Source: Rivularia sp. MS3
GTDB taxonomy: Bacteria; Cyanobacteriota; Cyanobacteriia; Cyanobacteriales; Nostocaceae
Assembly (NCBI GenBank): GCA_019192545.1
Contig: JAHCMI010000078.1
Location: forward strand, 10,030 to 42,029
DNA: 32,000 nt
Direction: 5' to 3'
This document shows, one piece after another, positions 4,162-23,616 of this stretch; the first letter of the stretch is position 1, and each line of letters begins with the position of its first letter. The notes under the pieces are model-generated. The model searched no databases. It was not told the origin of the DNA and worked only from the letters and a program-made list of their open reading frames with translations. The position numbers were made by a program, and so were the translations under genes.

Positions 4162-5316
4162 ATGGACTTTGGTATTGGGTTCCTCTCGAACAATGTAATG
4201 CTGCCAATCATAGACTTGTTCTATAGCATTGTACCGAGCTATGGATTGGCGATAATTGCTCTAACATTGATCATCCGCTTCTCACTTTATCCTCTGAGTG
4301 CTGGCTCAATACGCAATATGCGGAAGATGAAGATTGTCCAGCCGGTGATGCAGAAGCGGATGGCGGAAGTCAAAGAAAAATATAAAGACGATCCGCAGAA
4401 GCAGCAAGAAGAAATGATGAACGTGCAAAAGGAATTCGGCAATCCGCTTGCTGGTTGCGCTCCTTTAATTTTGCAAATGCCGGTGTTGCTGGCACTTTTT
4501 GCGACATTACGGGGTTCGCCTTTTGCAACTGCGAACTACAACGTTAACCTACAAATTTTACCTAGCGAACAAATCGAACGAATTCAACCGGCTGCGTTTG
4601 CGACAAAACCTTCAAGCATTTATGTTGATGAAGGCGAACGCATTAAAGTCGCTGCGATTCTTCCCGGAGGAAACAAGTTAGCTGTAGGAGAACACACCAA
4701 GCTGCAATATCAAACGGTTGATGGTAAGCCGTTTGAAGAAATATTGCAGCAGCATCCAGATAATAAAGACAAGTTACTTCCGCAGTGGAAGGTAACTAAA
4801 GGAGCCGAAAGAGTCAGTATTGATTCCGAAGGAAATATAGAAGCGCTACAGCCGGGAGATGTTACTATCCAGGGGAATATTCCCGGATTGGCAGCAGACA
4901 CCGGATTTTTGTTTATTGACGCTTTGGGTAGAGTAGGCGCATTTGATGACGATGGTACAATCCATTGGGATATTGTCTCAATGATTGGATTATTCGGCGT
5001 TTCGCTTTATGTAAGCCAATTACTTAACACGCAGGGCAATGCAGGTGGAGGCAATTCACAGCAGGATACAGTAAATAAAATTACTCCTATTCTATTTTCC
5101 GGGATGTTTTTATTCTTCCCCTTACCTGCTGGGGTATTGATGTATATGGTAATTGGTAACATTTTCCAAACTCTGCAAACCTACATCCTTTCCAAGGAAC
5201 CTTTACCCGAAGAAGTGCAAAAGATTGTGGATGCACAGGAAAAAGAAGCTTTGAGCGCAGATGCAAAAGCGCTACCGTTTGAACCAAAAAGTACTAAAAA
5301 GAAAGCAACAAGCTGA
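4162..5316 (+). CDS. yidC: Membrane protein insertase YidC (Oxa1/Alb3 family)
   Basis: 384 aa. Family-typical motifs: [65 protein letters not shown], and the C-terminal [23 protein letters not shown]. Confidence 0.93.
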
Positions 5317-17608: not shown

Positions 17609-19045
17609 ATGCTGCAATCTATCGAACAACGCATTCAAAGTATCATTAATAATCTCTTACCAAAGACAGCCATCGAAGGAAAATTCGGTACGCCAAAAAC
17701 TCTCCACGAACAATTAGAGCGTTACCATACTCCAGGAATTAGTATTGCAGTTATAAATAATTTTGAAATTGAATGGGCGCGGGGATTCGGGTTATGCGAA
17801 GCAGGAACAAGCCGCGAAGTTACTACAGATACCTTGTTTCAAGCTGGCTCAATTAGTAAACCCGTTTTTGCTTTAGCACTAATGCGTCTCGTACAAGAAG
17901 GCATTCTTAATCTTGATGAAGATGTTAATTCTTATCTCACCTCATGGCGAGTACCTGCAAATGGTGAGTGGCAACCATGTGTTACTTTGCGACAGCTACT
18001 AAGTCATACAGCAGGAATGACTGCACAAGGCTTTTACGGCTATCACGTCTCGGCTCCCTTACCTACAACAATTCAAGTGCTTAATGGTGAATTACCTGCA
18101 AATAGCGAGAAAGTAGAAGTTAATGTGATACCTGGGTTGAATTACCGCTATTCAGGTGGTGGCATGGTTGTTGCACAGCAGGTATTAGTAGATGTGCTGA
18201 AGAAACCTTTTCCAGAAATTATGCACGAATTGGTTTTACAACCGCTCGGCATGAGCAATAGCACTTATCAACAGCCGCTTTCAACTGATTGGGCAATAAA
18301 AGCAGCAACCGCTCATCCAATAAACGGCACTCCTCTAGGAGGAAAGTATTTTATCTATCCCGAAATGGCAGCAGCAGGTTTATGGAGTACACCAACAGAT
18401 TTAGCCAAGCTCGGAATCGAAATAATGCAAGTGTTGCATGGTAAATCTACTGGTTTATTGAGTAAAGAAACGATTGAAGAAATGTTGCATCCTCAGACAG
18501 AACAATCACAAGGAGCAAATGGATTATTTTTTGCATTAGGCTTTGCAGGAAATGGAACTGGTGATGGTTCTTACTTCTTTCATGACGGTACTAACATCGG
18601 ATTTATAGCATCAACGCGCTTTTATTCGCGCATTGGAAAAGGGATTGTTATTATGCTCAACTCCAATGAAGGCGAACCTTTGCGCGAGGAAATTATGAAG
18701 GCGATCGCACTTGAATACGATTATCCCGATGCATTTCCCCAAGAAAGAAAAACCGTCACTTTGTCGCAGCTTGATAGCTATTCGGGAGTCTATTTAACTA
18801 AATCTGGATTGCAATTTAAAGTAATCAATCGGGATGATAATTTGTTCTTAGAATGTCAGCAGCAACCACTTTTACAATTATTTCCAACATCAGAGTTAGA
18901 ATTTTTTGCTAAAGCCGTAAATGCAAATATTTCTTTTGAAAAAGATAATACGGGGAATATTACTGTAATGATTTTAAACCAAGCAGGTGTCATGAGTTTA
19001 AGACCGCAAGCTGATAAATATATTAGAGCAGAGAAAATTAAATGA
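17609..19045 (+). CDS. Serine hydrolase, beta-lactamase (class C / DD-peptidase) fold, with an extra C-terminal domain
   Basis: 478 aa. Contains the SxxK motif (FQAGSISKPVFALAL), YSGGG (a YxN-like position) and a late HDGTNIGF (KTG-like) motif. About 100 extra C-terminal residues. Confidence 0.86.
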   Translation: MLQSIEQRIQSIINNLLPKTAIEGKFGTPKTLHEQLERYHTPGISIAVINNFEIEWARGFGLCEAGTSREVTTDTLFQAGSISKPVFALALMRLVQEGILNLDEDVNSYLTSWRVPANGEWQPCVTLRQLLSHTAGMTAQGFYGYHVSAPLPTTIQVLNGELPANSEKVEVNVIPGLNYRYSGGGMVVAQQVLVDVLKKPFPEIMHELVLQPLGMSNSTYQQPLSTDWAIKAATAHPINGTPLGGKYFIYPEMAAAGLWSTPTDLAKLGIEIMQVLHGKSTGLLSKETIEEMLHPQTEQSQGANGLFFALGFAGNGTGDGSYFFHDGTNIGFIASTRFYSRIGKGIVIMLNSNEGEPLREEIMKAIALEYDYPDAFPQERKTVTLSQLDSYSGVYLTKSGLQFKVINRDDNLFLECQQQPLLQLFPTSELEFFAKAVNANISFEKDNTGNITVMILNQAGVMSLRPQADKYIRAEKIK

Positions 19046-19353
19046 AAGCGCCCGCAAGTAGAAGTTACAGAAAATATCTAATTGATTCGTTGCAAAATCG
19101 GCTACGTGCTGCTGGTTACATTTCGGTAATGTTGGAATTAGATGAAGATGGTTACGACGCTAAAATTTTTCGTTCCGCTTTAGAAGAAGTTGTCGAAGCA
19201 AGAAAACGCAGCGATGATTTTTCTCAAACAGCACAACAAAATTACGAACAAGCTGATAAAATACTGGCTGAAACCGGTGGTGCGGAAATTCTGAAGTTAA
19301 TTGAATTTTTAGATGCTTTGGGTTATCGAATTAGTTTGGTTGGTAAAGATTGA
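19042..19353 (+). CDS. Orphan addiction-module antidote-like protein (TIGR02684-type), paralogue of 19781-20101
   Basis: The start overlaps the hydrolase stop (ATGA at 19042-19045). Residues from VMLELDEDGYDAKIFRSALEEVVEARKRSDDFSQTAQQNYEQ onward are almost identical to the antitoxin downstream. No toxin gene directly precedes it. Confidence 0.7.
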   Translation: MKAPASRSYRKYLIDSLQNRLRAAGYISVMLELDEDGYDAKIFRSALEEVVEARKRSDDFSQTAQQNYEQADKILAETGGAEILKLIEFLDALGYRISLVGKD

Positions 19354-19464
19354 TTTTGTTTAATTATTTGAGAGTATTAAATCTTACAAATCACCTTAAA
19401 TAAATGTCATTAACACCTTACTATAAGCACAGAATTAATCTATGACGAATGAAAAATTACTTTA

Positions 19465-19809
19465 ATGGAAGCACAGCCACGAGAAATTAGGAATTATCAA
19501 ACCGTTAATGGAAAAGAACCTTTTGATGAATGGCTTAATTCACTGCGAGATATTCAAGTACGAGTCAAAATAGAGAAAAGACTTAGCCGTGTTGCAGAGG
19601 GTAATTTAGGAAATGATCGTTCAGTAGGAAATGGTGTTTGCGAACTAAAAATTAATTATGGTGCAGGATATCGAGTGTATTTTGGACAAATAGGCTCGGA
19701 AATTATACTCCTTCTGTGTGGTGGAGATAAAAGCACTCAACAACAAGATATTCAAAAAGCAAAGGAATACTGGGAAGATTATGAAAGACGTGAAAGCAGC
19801 GACAAGTAA
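19465..19809 (+). CDS. Type II toxin, addiction-module killer protein (TIGR02683-type; RelE/ParE superfamily, HigB-like)
   Basis: 114 aa. FDEWLNSLRD...RVKIEKRLSRVAEGNLGNDRSVGNGVCELKINYGAGYRVYFGQIGSEIILLLCGGDKSTQQQDIQKAKEY matches the canonical killer-protein pattern (..GVsELRidyGpGYRvYF...g..iiLLlcGGdKssQ..DI..A). Confidence 0.88.
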   Translation: MEAQPREIRNYQTVNGKEPFDEWLNSLRDIQVRVKIEKRLSRVAEGNLGNDRSVGNGVCELKINYGAGYRVYFGQIGSEIILLLCGGDKSTQQQDIQKAKEYWEDYERRESSDK

Positions 19810-20101
19810 TAGTTATAGAGAATCTCTCATCAATTCTCTCAAAGATTCCGAACACGCTGCGGCGTACATCGCAGTAATGTTGGAATTAGATGAAGATGGT
19901 TACGACGCTAAAATTTTTCGTTCCGCTTTAGAAGAAGTTGTCGAAGCAAGAAAACGCAGCGATGATTTTTCTCAAACAGCGCAACAAAATTACGAACAAC
20001 TCGATAAAATACTGGCTGAAACTGGTGGTGCGGAAATTCTGAAGTTGATTGAATTTTTAGATGCTTTGGGTTATCGGATTGCTCTATTTGATAAAGATTG
20101 A
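19781..20101 (+). CDS. Cognate antitoxin, addiction-module antidote protein (TIGR02684-type, HigA-like)
   Basis: I prefer ATG 19781 (MKDVKAATSNSYRESL...), which overlaps the toxin 3' end by 29 nt. Pattern AAAYIAVMLELDEDGYDAKIFRSALEEV...LIEFLDALGYRIAL. Toxin-first gene order is typical of this family. Confidence 0.8.
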   Translation: MKDVKAATSNSYRESLINSLKDSEHAAAYIAVMLELDEDGYDAKIFRSALEEVVEARKRSDDFSQTAQQNYEQLDKILAETGGAEILKLIEFLDALGYRIALFDKD

Positions 20102-20220
20102 TTTATGGAAGTTATGGTAATTATTTGTTGGAGAATATCAGCAATTTAGTACGTCTTTCTCCGGAATAGCTGTTGTCGAGCTAGAATCTAACAGTATTAT
20201 TACTGTTGACTAAGTGATTT

Positions 20221-20640
20221 ATGGAACATTTAACCGCTGCTACTATCGCGACTCTCGCTTTTAGAAAAGCCTTTGAAAAGAGTATTGATAAGATTACAGA
20301 AGCTACTTGGAATAAGATTAACAATTTGCGTGAGAAGATTTGGCAGAAGTTACGGGGTAATTTGGAAGCTGAAAAAGCTTTAGCTGCTGCTGAAAAAGCT
20401 TCTAAACCAGATTTAGATTTGGTTGCTGGGTATTTAAAGCAAGAAATGGAATGGGATGATAATTTTACTCAAGAAGTGCAAACTCTAGCGCGTGAGATTC
20501 AGCAAGATATTGATATTAATACAATTCAAGGGCAGAACGTGCAGAATGTCTACGGTGGAGAAGCCGAACAAAATAATGCTAACAATACCAACGCTCCAGT
20601 AATTCAAGGTGGTAGCGGACACAATATTACGTTCAATTGA
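20221..20640 (+). CDS. 139-aa helical N-terminal module with a G/N/Q-rich tail; in frame with the downstream NB-ARC ORF and separated from it by one TGA
   Basis: MEHLTAATIATLAFRKAFEK... is a hydrophobic/amphipathic first helix, followed by helical heptad-like sequence. The tail is IQGQNVQNVYGGEAEQNNANNTNAPVIQGGSGHNITFN, then TGA at 20638-20640. Both 20221 and 20695 have coordinates of the form 3n+1, so they share a frame. Confidence 0.6.
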   Translation: MEHLTAATIATLAFRKAFEKSIDKITEATWNKINNLREKIWQKLRGNLEAEKALAAAEKASKPDLDLVAGYLKQEMEWDDNFTQEVQTLAREIQQDIDINTIQGQNVQNVYGGEAEQNNANNTNAPVIQGGSGHNITFN

Positions 20641-20694
20641 CTACAGCCGTCGGTACGGGAACCGACAAAGTTTAATCCCATCAAATCTATTCCT

Positions 20695-22017
20695 GTGCGT
20701 GGTGTCGCTCGTTTTGTGGGACGACAGCAGGAACTCATCATGCTGCACAAACACTTGCAAAACACCGCTACAGTGGCGATTTCGGCTGTAGCTGGAATGG
20801 GCGGTGTAGGTAAAACTGAGTTAGCGACGCAATACACAAACCAACATGAAGCAGATTATCCGGGGGGTATTTGCTGGTTAAATGCTAGGGAAACCAATTT
20901 AGCAGCAGAAATTATTCAAATTTTTCAGCTACATACAAATCTTCAAGTACCGCAAAAGGTAGCGGGAAAACCCCTAACTTTACAAAAACAAGTAGAGTGG
21001 TGTTGGCAGAATTGGCAACCAGCAGAAGGTTTGGTGTTGTTGGTATTTGATGATGTTACCGATTTAGATAATTTTCGCCAGGTATTATCAACCGCTAACC
21101 GCTTCCGGATATTGCTAACAACCCGATTGCGAAATCTTGACGCTAACATTCAGGAAATATCCCTGGATGCCTTATCACCAAATGACGCTTTGCTACTTTT
21201 GAAAGCTTTGGTAGGTGAAAGAGCTAATTGTGCATCAGAATTATGTGAATGGCTGGGTTATCTTCCTTTAGGTTTGGAATTAGTTGGACGCTATTTACGA
21301 GAAGATCCCGATTTATCGGTAGCGCAAATGTTGCAAAGACTAAAAGATAAGCGACTCGAAGACGAAGCGTTGCAACATTCAGCAAAATCTTTGAGTACCG
21401 CACAGCTAGGGGTACAAGCAGCATTTGAATTAACCTGGCAAAAATTAGATGCAAATACTCAAACTATCGCGCAGTTTTTAAGTTTGTTTGCACTTGATGT
21501 TATTCCTTGGGAATTTGTAGAAAGGGGAATTTTCTCTTTAGATGTTCTGGACAAGGAAGTAAATCAAGCCAAAAAACAACTTTATAAACGGAACTTAATT
21601 CAAAGGCTGGAACAGGGAGAAGCTTGCTACAAAATTCATCCTTTAATTCGGGAGTTTTTGCAATCGAAGTTAGGGAATAACTCCAATAAAAACGATTTTA
21701 AACAAGCCTTTGCAGCAATATTTCTAGAAATTGCCCAGCAAATACCACAATCTCTTACTCTTGAAGATATTGATTCAGTGCAACTCGCAATACCTCATTT
21801 AGCAGAAGTAGCAGAAAATCATCCCTCCACCGCTACGAGCTTGAACAACTTGGCAGGAATTTACGATTCCCAAGGACGTTACGATGAAGCCGAACGCCTA
21901 TATATCCAAGCTTTAGAAATATGCGAAAAAATATTAGGTGAAAATCACACTACAACTAAAATAGTTTGTAAAAATATAGAAATCATGCAGCGAGAAAGAA
22001 ACAAGAAAAAACCTTAG
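20695..22017 (+). CDS. STAND NTPase, NB-ARC (AP-ATPase) domain with a collapsed C-terminal TPR region; possibly the 3' part of a disrupted or readthrough gene 20221-22017
   Basis: Contains Walker A (GMGGVGKTELA), Walker B (LVLLVFDDV), RILLTTR, and the GxP/helical-domain motif WLGYLPLGLELVG. Only about 1.5 TPR units are present (ATSLNNLAGIYDSQGRYDEAERLYIQALEICEKILGENH). The 18 codons upstream (20641-20694) are open, and the conserved entry motif (NPIKSIPVRGVARFVGRQQEL) straddles the predicted GTG start. There is no SD. Confidence 0.85.
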   Translation: MRGVARFVGRQQELIMLHKHLQNTATVAISAVAGMGGVGKTELATQYTNQHEADYPGGICWLNARETNLAAEIIQIFQLHTNLQVPQKVAGKPLTLQKQVEWCWQNWQPAEGLVLLVFDDVTDLDNFRQVLSTANRFRILLTTRLRNLDANIQEISLDALSPNDALLLLKALVGERANCASELCEWLGYLPLGLELVGRYLREDPDLSVAQMLQRLKDKRLEDEALQHSAKSLSTAQLGVQAAFELTWQKLDANTQTIAQFLSLFALDVIPWEFVERGIFSLDVLDKEVNQAKKQLYKRNLIQRLEQGEACYKIHPLIREFLQSKLGNNSNKNDFKQAFAAIFLEIAQQIPQSLTLEDIDSVQLAIPHLAEVAENHPSTATSLNNLAGIYDSQGRYDEAERLYIQALEICEKILGENHTTTKIVCKNIEIMQRERNKKKP

Positions 22018-22044
22018 TGGAAGCGACTTTTTGGTTAATAAGAG

Positions 22045-22090
22045 CTCTCTCTTCTTCTCTTCCTCTGCGCTCTCTGCGTCTCTGCGGTTT
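22045..22090 (+). repeat. Dispersed CT-rich (CTCTGCG)n repeat element, copy 1
   Basis: CTCTCTCTTCTTCTCTTCCTCTGCGCTCTCTGCGTCTCTGCGGTTT. Related copies lie at 29469-29520 (same orientation) and 27747-27786 (inverted). Confidence 0.7.
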
Positions 22091-22119
22091 ATTATTCATT
22101 AGTTTAAAAATTAACAGAT

Positions 22120-22185
22120 GGTGCGTGACGGTATTTTCAAATGATTTCGTTAAAGTTGATAAATTATCGTCACCGTCACAGCACC
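22120..22185. repeat. Imperfect inverted repeat (13-bp arms with one bulge, 39-nt loop), hairpin or MITE-like module
   Basis: GGTGCGTGACGGT (22120-22132) pairs with ACCGTCACAGCACC (22172-22185). It lies between the convergent STAND and histidine kinase genes, so it may act as a bidirectional terminator. Confidence 0.55.
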
Positions 22186-22197
22186 CTACAAAAAACC

Positions 22198-22225
22198 AAT
22201 GCCCAATGCCCTATGCCCAATTCCC
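22198..22225. repeat. STRR-like heptamer tandem repeat (AATGCCC-type, 4 units)
   Basis: aatgccc aatgccc tatgccc aattccc, abutting the histidine kinase stop codon. Confidence 0.7.
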
Positions 22226-23616
22226 TAAACCGGCAAACAAACTGTAAAAATACTACCTTCACTCAATTTAGAACGCACGGAAACTTTACCACCCATTCCT
22301 TCAACTAATGTCTTAACTATCGATAATCCTAAACCAGTTCCACCAGCACGATTGCGGGCTTCATCTATTCGGTAAAAGCGCTCAAATATCCGCGATTGAT
22401 GTTGTAAGGGTATGCCATAACCTACGTCGCAAACTTGAACGCATCCCTCGTCTTCTTTACGAGTTAATTTTAAGGTAATTGGTGTTCCTGGTTCGGAATA
22501 TTTAACAGCATTGTCTATTAAGTTAAGCAATATTTGTTTGAGACGAGCATAGTCTGCTTTGACTTCAATTATTTCTGTTGAAGCTTCAATTTGAATATCT
22601 CTTTCGCTGCATTTATCAGCCATGTCTACAGCTTCGATAACTACATCATTTAAAACACAGTTTTCTATATTTAAATGTAAATTACCGTGGTCTGCTCTGG
22701 CTAACTCCAACAAATCTTGTAATAAACTGATGGTATTATCTGCTTCCGATGCGGCAGTTTCTAAAGCTTCTTTTTGGATTTCTGTTAAGTTCTGCTGTCT
22801 TCTTAATATACTTTGTAAGTAACCGTGGACTATTGTTAAAGGAGTGCGTAATTCGTGGGATACGTTACTGACAAATTGACGTTCTTTTTCCCAGGAATCG
22901 GAAAGACGAGCCAGCATCATATTACAGGTTTGGGCTAACTGTTTAACTTCACTTGGTGCTTTGTCTAAATACAGTTGTGCTTTTCCTAAATCGTCAGCAG
23001 AAATGACTTCTGTCATTTGACTTAGTTGACGTAAAGGTTTTAAAGAGCGCTGGATATAAACAGCAATTGCGCCCGCCATGATGACAATTACTAAAACGCT
23101 GGTAACACCTACACCTTGCATCATTGCGACAAACATTGTTTGGTCGCGGGTGATATCTTGGGCTACTAAAATCTTACCGATTACTTTTCCCTGGATGCTC
23201 AAATCATCGCTACATAATACATAATAACGATTATCAATTTGGATAACTTTTGGTTTGATTCGTACTTTTGTAAAAGCAATTAATCGATTTTTGTCCGAGT
23301 TAGATGAGGTCATCAATGTATTAGATTTAGCTAATACTTGATTATCTAAACCTTCGACCCATAACAATGCATTATTAATCTTGAAATTATTAATTGCTTC
23401 AGAAATTGCTTTTTCTTCCGAACCCATTTTACTTAACATTTCAACATCGCGAGGAATTGTTGTAGCGATTTCTTCAATATTTTTTTTATGATTTTCAATC
23501 AGTATTCGCTGCATTCTCCAACCAGTCCAAGAAGCAAGACTTCCCAAACCTAGAATTGAAAAGGCTGCGACACCAGCCGTTAAACGTAATCTTAATGAAT
23601 TAAAGTCGAATTTCAT
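22225..23616 (-). CDS. Sensor histidine kinase (2 TM + periplasmic loop + HAMP + HisKA + HATPase_c)
   Basis: 463 aa. H-box SHELRTPLT, N-box LLNLIDNAVKYS, G-boxes DVGYGIP and GTGLGLSIV. No response regulator gene is present anywhere in the window. Confidence 0.92.
   Translation of the reverse strand: MKFDFNSLRLRLTAGVAAFSILGLGSLASWTGWRMQRILIENHKKNIEEIATTIPRDVEMLSKMGSEEKAISEAINNFKINNALLWVEGLDNQVLAKSNTLMTSSNSDKNRLIAFTKVRIKPKVIQIDNRYYVLCSDDLSIQGKVIGKILVAQDITRDQTMFVAMMQGVGVTSVLVIVIMAGAIAVYIQRSLKPLRQLSQMTEVISADDLGKAQLYLDKAPSEVKQLAQTCNMMLARLSDSWEKERQFVSNVSHELRTPLTIVHGYLQSILRRQQNLTEIQKEALETAASEADNTISLLQDLLELARADHGNLHLNIENCVLNDVVIEAVDMADKCSERDIQIEASTEIIEVKADYARLKQILLNLIDNAVKYSEPGTPITLKLTRKEDEGCVQVCDVGYGIPLQHQSRIFERFYRIDEARNRAGGTGLGLSIVKTLVEGMGGKVSVRSKLSEGSIFTVCLPV

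Follow-up and report, generated by a model that had tools for sequence, protein, structure and literature searches.

A candidate stop-codon readthrough junction between a Bell-like effector domain and an NB-ARC/TPR module in Rivularia sp. MS3 and other filamentous cyanobacteria

The DNA considered here, called the window throughout, is a stretch of 32,000 nucleotides from Rivularia sp. MS3 (contig JAHCMI010000078.1, positions 10,030 to 42,029). On its forward strand, an open reading frame (ORF) at 20221..20640 encodes a protein of 139 residues and is terminated by TGA at 20638-20640. Past this stop the same frame runs on for 458 codons (20641-22014) with no further stop, through a linker and an NB-ARC domain to a single TPR repeat. 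Comparison of the locus with its relatives (a conserved stop in a conserved context, an RNA structure, a frame that stays open, no start codon in the downstream part, coding selection across the junction, and the contrast to relatives organized as two genes) leads us to propose that one ORF probably makes both a free effector and an effector-sensor fusion by stop-codon readthrough, in signaling of the amyloid type. Features of the locus are listed in Table 1.

The 139-residue protein

The short protein consists of about 100 helical residues followed by a conserved tail rich in G, N, and Q. An AlphaFold2 model built with an alignment of 108 sequences places helices at residues 6-14, 17-20, 27-44, 48-57, 62-78, and 80-101; for residues 1-100 the predicted local distance difference test score (pLDDT) lies between 72 and 92, and the model gives the tail (residues 102-139) low confidence and no structure. 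The N-terminal hydrophobic helix, MEHLTAATIATLAF, carries a MEPIS-type motif, as does the family as a whole, whose N-terminus reads MEP(L/I)(T/S) and forms a hydrophobic helix with four helices after it (consensus MEPLTAGAIATLAFTKAF). Bell-type domains have been described as four helices cupping helix 1, and the MEPIS region is common to Hell, Bell, Babybell, Avs2, and bNACHTs (bioRxiv 10.1101/2024.11.07.622273). In the model, helix 1 (residues 6-20) is likewise followed by four helices through residue 101; the match to the published description concerns the number and order of the helices.

The best-conserved part of the protein in the alignment of 108 homologues is the tail (IQGQNVQNVYGG ... 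APVIQGGSGHNITFN), with the family pattern INIGKIQGQNVQNVYGGEA..NAPVIQGGSGH.ITFN, and this motif is present once within the window. A search of 5.8 billion proteins yielded 113 homologues, nearly all of them stand-alone proteins of 136-150 residues. Their hosts are Nostocales (Tolypothrix, Calothrix, Rivularia, Scytonema, Nostoc, Brasilonema, and Gloeotrichia). Many genomes have this one motif type at two or three loci, among them Calothrix CCY 0018, Nostoc LPT, Brasilonema CT11, Iningainema tapete, Scytonema hyalinum, and Tolypothrix campylonemoides, which looks like a paralogous repertoire of the kind typical of NLR-like genes.

The stop, the RNA element, and the open frame

Genomic loci for comparison were picked by protein similarity alone (n = 59) and make up, together with the window, 60 distinct loci. 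TGA followed by C is invariant in all 60, even though third codon positions nearby are close to saturated; conservation of this context lies far beyond chance, and neither TAA, TAG, nor a sense codon occupies the site in the 59 loci or the window. Protein look-up yielded loci with TAG-C and the same element (L121, L122, and L123/L124), and a second copy in L055 is of this kind as well; the TAG-C elements keep the stem by compensatory changes (GGAGG/CCTCC and GCCTC/GAGGT). UAA is absent at all of these junctions. It is the least leaky stop, and both C at +4 and UGA-CUA are among the known readthrough signals (PMC7026636). What has been conserved against synonymous stops is a leaky stop in a leaky context. 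The spacer that follows varies little, with C at +4 and at +11 in 60/60 loci and A at +8 and G at +9 in 59/60 each. Codon +2 is NAG in 58 of the 60 and AAC or ACG in the other two, never CAA, GAA, or AAA.

One protein record, P0125 (from L060), shows Trp at the stop site and was considered as a natural sense-codon variant. It proved to be a gene-caller artefact, the contig having been translated with a code in which UGA means Trp; its DNA has TGA and the element. P0143 also carries a W at the site, followed by out-of-frame-looking sequence. Records translated with this code make such loci resemble ordinary fusions.

The RNA element of the family is a 5-bp stem with an 8-nucleotide loop containing GGGA(A), starting 8 nucleotides past the stop. 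Across the 59 loci the stem is 98.6% paired, with alternation of CG/UA/UG and of CG/GC/UG/UA, and for the whole structure 96.4% of cells in the 59-locus alignment are paired, with double changes in seven of nine pairs. These values were reached by none of 500 shuffles, and slid controls pair at 23-59%. In elements from a metagenome scan (see below), the free pattern positions of the stem pair in 49/49. Many of the pairs are G-U on the sense strand, which points to an RNA rather than a DNA structure. The encoded residues co-vary with the stem (SS..EPT, SP..ERV, SS..ERT, SP..EQV), and within the first 48 nucleotides past the stop the third position of codons shows no more freedom than the other two. 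Rfam, run on 20000-21200 with E up to 10, returned neither a selenocysteine insertion sequence (SECIS) nor any other family.

A probable second stem would pair the loop with a TCCC lying about 10 nucleotides 3' of stem 1 and would form an H-type pseudoknot. Compensatory variants of this pairing are CAGG/CCTG, GGGC/GCCC, CGGA/TCCG, GGAC/GTCC, and GGAG/CTCC. The Pro codon at position 13, which is part of stem 2, is CCC in 76 cases, CCT in 8, and CCG and CCA in 2 each, in contrast to a neighboring Pro codon (CCA 25, CCT 20, CCC 5); the two CCG cases in genome loci (L015 and L032) pair with a CGGA loop. A covarying RNA structure is present, then, at a fixed short distance 3' of the stop, its second stem being less strongly supported than the first.

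Beyond the element, in all 59 loci and the window, 61-1432 codons leading into STAND modules follow in the same frame without a stop, and the peptide past the stop begins LQSPERER.KLNP. The first in-frame ATG, GTG, or TTG varies in position from codon 4 to codon 71. In six loci (L004, L006-L009, and L013) it is the Met within the P-loop GMGGVGK, which cannot be a functional start; automatic gene callers nonetheless open the downstream "gene" inside the P-loop. In a six-locus clade, codons 14-37 past the stop precede any start in five of the six loci and have a synonymous fraction of 0.63, vs. 0.24 expected without constraint; for comparison, the fraction is 0.66 in NB-ARC proper and 0.19 in codons 1-13, which form the RNA element. 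All indels in the linker are multiples of three. The downstream ORF is therefore in frame, has no initiation site of its own, and is under coding selection from the stop onward. At least six downstream modules share the junction in frame: two types of NB-ARC, NACHT with HEAT, another STAND NTPase, CHAT, and a transmembrane/Pro-rich module. Judged from these sequences, independent initiation or reinitiation does not explain why the frame is conserved.

The Walker A, Walker B, and GLPL motifs of the window NB-ARC are intact, and this part aligns over its full length with relatives at 51-55% identity. The TPR array has one repeat in the window vs. about eight in L009. About 48 residues of the helical region before the TPR are deleted in the window, and L001 and L055 are similarly short. 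A promoter-like site and a terminator-like hairpin, both weak evidence, flank the whole unit on either side (Table 1); when 19950-22300 was scanned, no sigma-70-like match was found between the small ORF and the NB-ARC part.

Table 1. Features of the locus in the window, in order of position. Handles beginning with L designate loci.
Feature	Position	Strand	Basis or remark
Promoter-like site	20173..20200	+	only sigma-70-like match in 19950-22300; weak evidence
Bell-like helical domain, residues 1-101	20221..20523	+	AlphaFold2 helices; family alignment; hhalign to second MEP... family; relatives in classical Bell/BASS pairs
G/N/Q-rich tail, residues 102-139	20524..20637	+	most conserved family segment; aligns with L065 Bell-side motif; single copy in window
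Tail pseudo-repeat 1, IQGQNVQNVYGG	20524-20559	+	within the tail
Tail pseudo-repeat 2, PVIQGGSGHNITFN	20596-20637	+	within the tail
Putatively recoded stop TGA with C at +4	20638..20641	+	TGA-C in 60/60 distinct loci; TAG-C in L055b, L121, L122, L123; never TAA
8-nucleotide spacer CTACAGCC, consensus C-U-R-N-A-G-Y-C	20641..20648	+	indel-free in every locus
In-frame continuation: linker, NB-ARC, helical region, one TPR_10	20641..22017	+	stop at 22015-22017
Hairpin: stem GTCGGT (20649-20654) with ACCGAC (20661-20666), loop ACGGGA (20655-20660)	20649..20666	+	covariation; minimum free energy -9.1 kcal/mol
Probable pseudoknot stem 2: loop GGGA (20657-20660) with TCCC (20676-20679)	20657..20679	+	93.6% of cells paired
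NB-ARC	about 20737-21393	+	Pfam 4.4e-15
P-loop GMGGVGKT	20794-20817	+	within NB-ARC
TPR_10, single repeat	21829-21948	+	Pfam 1.4e-15
Terminator-like hairpin and T-run past the long ORF	22074..22097 (hairpin 22074-22087)	+	weak evidence

Relation to Bell/BASS pairs and spread of the junction

An exhaustive search with the family profile returned 580 cluster representatives at E <= 1e-3, 241 of them at E <= 1e-10. Most of these proteins have 130-155 residues, start with M(E/D)P(L/I/V)(T/S), and end in diverse G/N/Q motifs. Among the matches are P0222 (E 6.5e-18), with the BASS9-type tail MTQNNSDNAKGWQTKVEGGTAYI, and P0124 (E 4.5e-31), whose tail is like that of the ADN17024/ADN17025 pair; the motif of the former is the published BASS9, and that of the latter belongs to a pair that Dyrka et al. 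2020 (bioRxiv 10.1101/2020.01.06.895854) give as "unassigned" in their Table S2. Checked in their contigs (L064 and L065, respectively), both are classical two-gene pairs: the ORF ends in TAA, and the gene after it starts at an ATG of its own, in another frame, and repeats the motif at its N-terminus. The two motif copies of L064, NSDNAKGWQTKVEGGTAYIGEIH and NRDNARGYQTLVEGGVAYVGDHYH, align with a score of 91 (shuffles 21 +/- 4) and those of L065 with a score of 128 (shuffles 25 +/- 5). The window tail aligned with the Bell-side motif of L065 scores 59, against 26 +/- 5 and a maximum of 45 for shuffles. A repeat of the tail motif was not found in the window's own downstream 70 residues (score 19, shuffles 21 +/- 4).

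The window protein is thus related to recognized Bell proteins, it has a C-terminal G/N/Q motif with alternating hydrophobics, and it lies collinear with a downstream NB-ARC/NACHT-type module with repeats (NB-ARC, NACHT, or CHAT in homologous loci); a second copy of the motif on a separately translated NLR is what the window lacks. No Pfam model exists for Bell. Taken together, the sequence relationships support placing the helical domain in the Bell family in the published sense, with the duplicated motif apparently replaced by a recoded stop. Hints of other affiliations are weak: HetE-N, and a UniRef name referring to the SesA-type N-terminal domain of NACHT/P-loop NTPases.

A preliminary description of this DNA, made from the sequence alone, had seen in the product an N-terminal hydrophobic helix, further helices, and two G/N/Q pseudo-repeats, and the AlphaFold2 model and the alignment of 108 homologues reproduce that layout. 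It had also called the domain Bell-like, which agrees with the MEPIS-type helix and the four helices after it and with a profile that finds members of classical Bell-BASS/BASS-NLR pairs, including BASS9. The likeness of the tail to amyloid-signaling motifs is borne out by its alignment with the Bell side of the L065 pair, and the claim that the motif sits at the junction rather than being duplicated on the NLR by its single copy.

When metagenomes were scanned for the RNA pattern, 54 further loci came up. Their upstream ORFs include members of the window's family and of a second MEP... helical family, a TIR-domain protein, and an alpha/beta hydrolase. The second MEP... family is homologous to that of the window (hhalign probability 95.6%) and has BASS5-like tails (KLAE.I.NV.QGN...). 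In L086 (TGA at 870), a TIR-domain protein with a GWQV..GG tail precedes TGA-C and the hairpin, and in L097 (TGA at 1610) a 301-residue alpha/beta-hydrolase (DUF676/PGAP1-like) with no obvious amyloid motif does so. All kinds of upstream ORF end at the TGA-C element in frame with STAND modules. The L086 and L097 junctions indicate that the junction is not restricted to Bell-like effectors, and P0110 (L062), in which a BASS9-type tail is followed by TGA-C and the element, indicates that it is not tied to one motif type.

A paralogue about 4 kb downstream of the full locus in L055 (L055:4770-4944, with the second element at 4893-4944) has an upstream ORF of 37 residues, MSNPQNEQNVFGGESNQVNNPTAPVILGQDNTVNISY, comprising the motif without a helical domain, followed by TAG-C, the hairpin, and an in-frame NB-ARC. 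This may be a duplicate that has lost its 5' part, or readthrough there could make a classical motif-NLR. Distant relatives with the helical domain and tail (P0117, P0176, P0122, P0247, and P0209) are true fusions without a stop, with TIR, CHAT plus TIR, a GUN4-like domain, or NB-ARC as partners. In P0209 (L061) the module is internal and GGC stands where the stop would be; the existence of this sense-codon fusion indicates that a fused protein is viable.

A readthrough model, its rivals, and known counterparts

In the arrangement that we propose, one transcription unit (about 20200-22100) with one reading frame would give rise to two proteins. Most ribosomes would terminate at the UGA at 20638 and release the 139-residue Bell-like domain with its amyloid-signaling-type motif, while a minority would decode the stop as sense, probably by near-cognate tRNA-Trp. 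Such decoding would be favored by the C at +4 and the following CUA/CUG codon, as well as by the hairpin or H-type pseudoknot from +12, which would meet the ribosome entry channel while the stop occupies the A site. The readthrough product would be a 598-residue fusion of Bell-like domain, motif, linker, NB-ARC, and TPR, that is, an NLR-like sensor carrying the sole receptor-side copy of the motif. Upon ligand sensing the fusion would oligomerize, and its clustered motifs would nucleate an amyloid fold; this would be templated onto the excess of free short protein, whose helical domain would then attack the membrane as a cell-suicide effector. The occurrence and efficiency of readthrough, the inserted residue, the amyloid templating, and the membrane attack are inferences, as are the membrane targeting, amyloid formation, and toxicity of the 139-residue protein. 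We lean, if only slightly, toward the broader view that a recoding signal of viral type (UGA or UAG, C, the 8-nucleotide spacer, and a small pseudoknot) serves filamentous cyanobacteria as the standard junction between NLR-like sensors and effectors of several kinds (Bell-like domains, TIR, a hydrolase), most of which end in a motif of the amyloid type. One ORF would then supply much free effector and a little of the fusion that nucleates it, and the efficiency of termination would set the stoichiometry and the trigger threshold. A recoding junction of this kind could respond to infection-induced disturbance of translation.

Several points weigh against this model. Readthrough, the long product, and its abundance are predictions, the evidence being comparative throughout, and amyloid formation by motifs of this type is putative. 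We know of no bacterial precedent for structure-stimulated readthrough. For readthrough in bacterial cellular genes, one review gives a single case (PMC7026636). The 139-residue protein has no significant match in Pfam, NCBIfam, or PADLOC, a sequence-profile search of the PDB with the helical domain gave nothing significant (best E 0.13), and Foldseek of the AlphaFold2 model against the PDB found a best E of 2.9 and template modeling (TM) scores <=0.36, with no death-fold entries. The term "Bell-like" accordingly reflects family links and the N-terminal motif, and the null PDB and Foldseek results do not permit a claim of a HeLo, MLKL, four-helix-bundle, or death fold from structure. The death-fold label of the preliminary description (DD/CARD/PYD/DED, a six-helix Greek-key bundle) falls with the Foldseek and Pfam nulls, and the same PDB comparison gave no structural match to pore-forming domains.

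Other points concern the RNA and the sensor. The window hairpin alone is not significantly stable (z = -0.51 vs. shuffles), so that it is covariation that supports the structure. Stem 2 is missing in L010, L022, and L056, where the downstream module is joined directly behind the stem (after AAAG) and no TCCC is present to pair with the loop. Either these loci can do without stem 2 or readthrough is lower in them. Because of these three loci the pseudoknot is probable rather than proven. Stem 2 also overlaps a conserved Asn-Pro dipeptide that is found in classical NLR linkers as well. Finally, with its TPR array reduced to one repeat, the window copy may be a weakened sensor.

Readthrough could also be real and the short protein serve another end: as a decoy or inhibitor capping the N-terminal module of the long form, or as a homotypic adaptor of the "effector-associated domain" kind, or the stop might keep an all-in-one NLR at a very low level. 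The stop-free fusions of helical domain and tail to TIR, CHAT plus TIR, GUN4-like, and other domains (P0117, P0176, P0122) are as compatible with an adaptor as with an executioner, P0247 and P0209 are examples of all-in-one fusions, and structural matches to pore-forming domains are lacking. We nevertheless consider these roles unlikely, given that relatives occur in classical effector/NLR motif pairs, that the junction also follows clear effector enzymes (TIR in L086, hydrolase in L097), and that a MEPIS-type N-terminus is required for the abortive infection (Abi) activity of Bab and Avs2 (bioRxiv 10.1101/2024.11.07.622273).

Bell genes and NLR genes usually lie close together as separate units, inter-cistron hairpins are common, and the window has a GTG at codon 18 past the stop (20695), all of which would suit two ordinary neighboring genes in which the NB-ARC part is self-initiated (by a non-canonical or termination-coupled start) and the hairpin controls coupling, mRNA stability, or processing. 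This is quite improbable, as it leaves unexplained both the conservation of frame in more than 100 loci and at least six types of downstream module and the exclusive use of TGA or TAG with C always next. Several loci have no start ahead of the P-loop, coding selection is seen upstream of any start, RNase III would need a stem longer than 5 bp, and no T-run comes after the stem. We give very little credence to selenocysteine insertion at the UGA with the hairpin as a bacterial SECIS element, even though the in-frame UGA, the conserved hairpin, and a conserved G-rich loop at a SECIS-like distance recall one: four independent relatives have UAG with the same element, Rfam shows no SECIS match in 20000-21200, Cys-containing homologues with the site are lacking, the linker in which it lies is variable and non-catalytic, and a tRNA scan of the window found no tRNA gene. 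The literature reports the Sec trait as not detected in Cyanobacteria, a statement about the group rather than a selABC scan of these genomes. TAG-C variants with the same element, together with the lack of TAA, exclude selenocysteine in our view. A pseudogene, whether through a nonsense mutation or a sequencing error in an all-in-one NLR, has a next to negligible probability. The single in-frame stop in an otherwise continuous ORF and the shortened TPR array would fit, but more than 100 loci, of many genera and from independent assemblies, have the stop at this very position, the Walker A, Walker B, and GLPL motifs are intact, and purifying selection acts on both sides of the stop; a stop conserved in every locus rules such an origin out.

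Readthrough yielding effector and sensor from one ORF is hence the account we prefer. The preliminary description had remarked on a leaky-looking stop, which the invariance of TGA-C confirms, and had speculated about a single-gene arrangement operating through it; that speculation has turned out to be its best-supported part, through the UGA/UAG-C context, the RNA structure, the open frame without a start, and the coding selection.

Directly upstream of the NLR locus lie two ORFs, at 19042-19353 and at about 19775-20101, that are nearly identical in their C-terminal halves (…MLELDEDGYDAKIFRSALEEVVEARKRSDDFSQTAQQNYEQ.DKILAETGGAEILKLIEFLDALGYRI…). Between them, a 114-residue ORF (19465-19809) has a weak Gp49/HigB-like match (E 4.7e-4, below the Pfam cut-off). 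The arrangement over 19042-20101 resembles a module of the toxin-antitoxin type in which the partner gene has been duplicated.

Should readthrough be confirmed, these loci would provide the first widespread case in chromosomal genes of bacteria of programmed stop-codon readthrough stimulated by a structure, with a signal geometry the same as that of retroviral and alphaviral signals. It would add a third wiring of amyloid-based immune signaling to the two-gene and all-in-one forms, with the ratio of receptor to effector fixed by translation. Annotation at present breaks such loci up into a "hypothetical protein" and an NLR with a truncated N-terminus or a wrong start; surveys demanding a duplicated motif would therefore miss this class. 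The RNA element is compact (about 45 nucleotides) and could serve to set protein ratios. A literature search on readthrough in bacterial NLR/BASS systems or in Nostocales returned nothing relevant, and we found no paper linking Bell/BASS with programmed readthrough or describing an element of this kind from cyanobacteria. Both Bell/BASS systems and programmed readthrough are already known separately.

With Bell/BASS pairs the locus shares a helical domain of about 100 residues, the MEP... helix, a C-terminal G/N/Q motif, a collinear downstream NB-ARC/TPR gene region, and occurrence in filamentous cyanobacteria. It differs from them in having no second motif on a separate NLR, in being one frame broken by UGA/UAG-C and an RNA structure, and in that the NLR could bear the motif, and with it the whole effector, only via readthrough. 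Fungal NLRs offer counterparts to both predicted products: the long form resembles the all-in-one proteins in which HeLo/HeLo-like or SesA domains are fused to NACHT, and the short form the free effector with motif of the two-gene HET-S/NWD2 system. Here, however, both architectures would come from one ORF, and no significant match to HeLo was found in sequence or fold.

To our knowledge, readthrough in Q-beta A1 and in B. subtilis levansucrase involves no conserved downstream RNA structure and concerns single genes. These two cases are alike the proposed one in near-cognate decoding of a stop on bacterial ribosomes, giving a C-terminally extended minor product (PMC7026636), whereas the present junction is family-wide, across many paralogues and several effector types. 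From the viral signals (UGA-CUA with a 3' stem-loop in alphaviruses; gag-pol of Moloney murine leukemia virus, MoMLV), the candidate cyanobacterial element differs in belonging to a bacterial chromosomal gene, in facing 70S ribosomes and RF1/RF2, and in a stem of only 5-6 bp. An 8-nucleotide spacer with structure from +12 has been described for MoMLV, Venezuelan equine encephalitis virus (VEEV), and Colorado tick fever virus (CTFV) (PMC13517186). The likeness to these signals extends to a leaky stop with C at +4 and CUA following it, a conserved 8-nucleotide spacer, structure from +12, a probable H-type pseudoknot, and, as proposed here, two products made in a set ratio.

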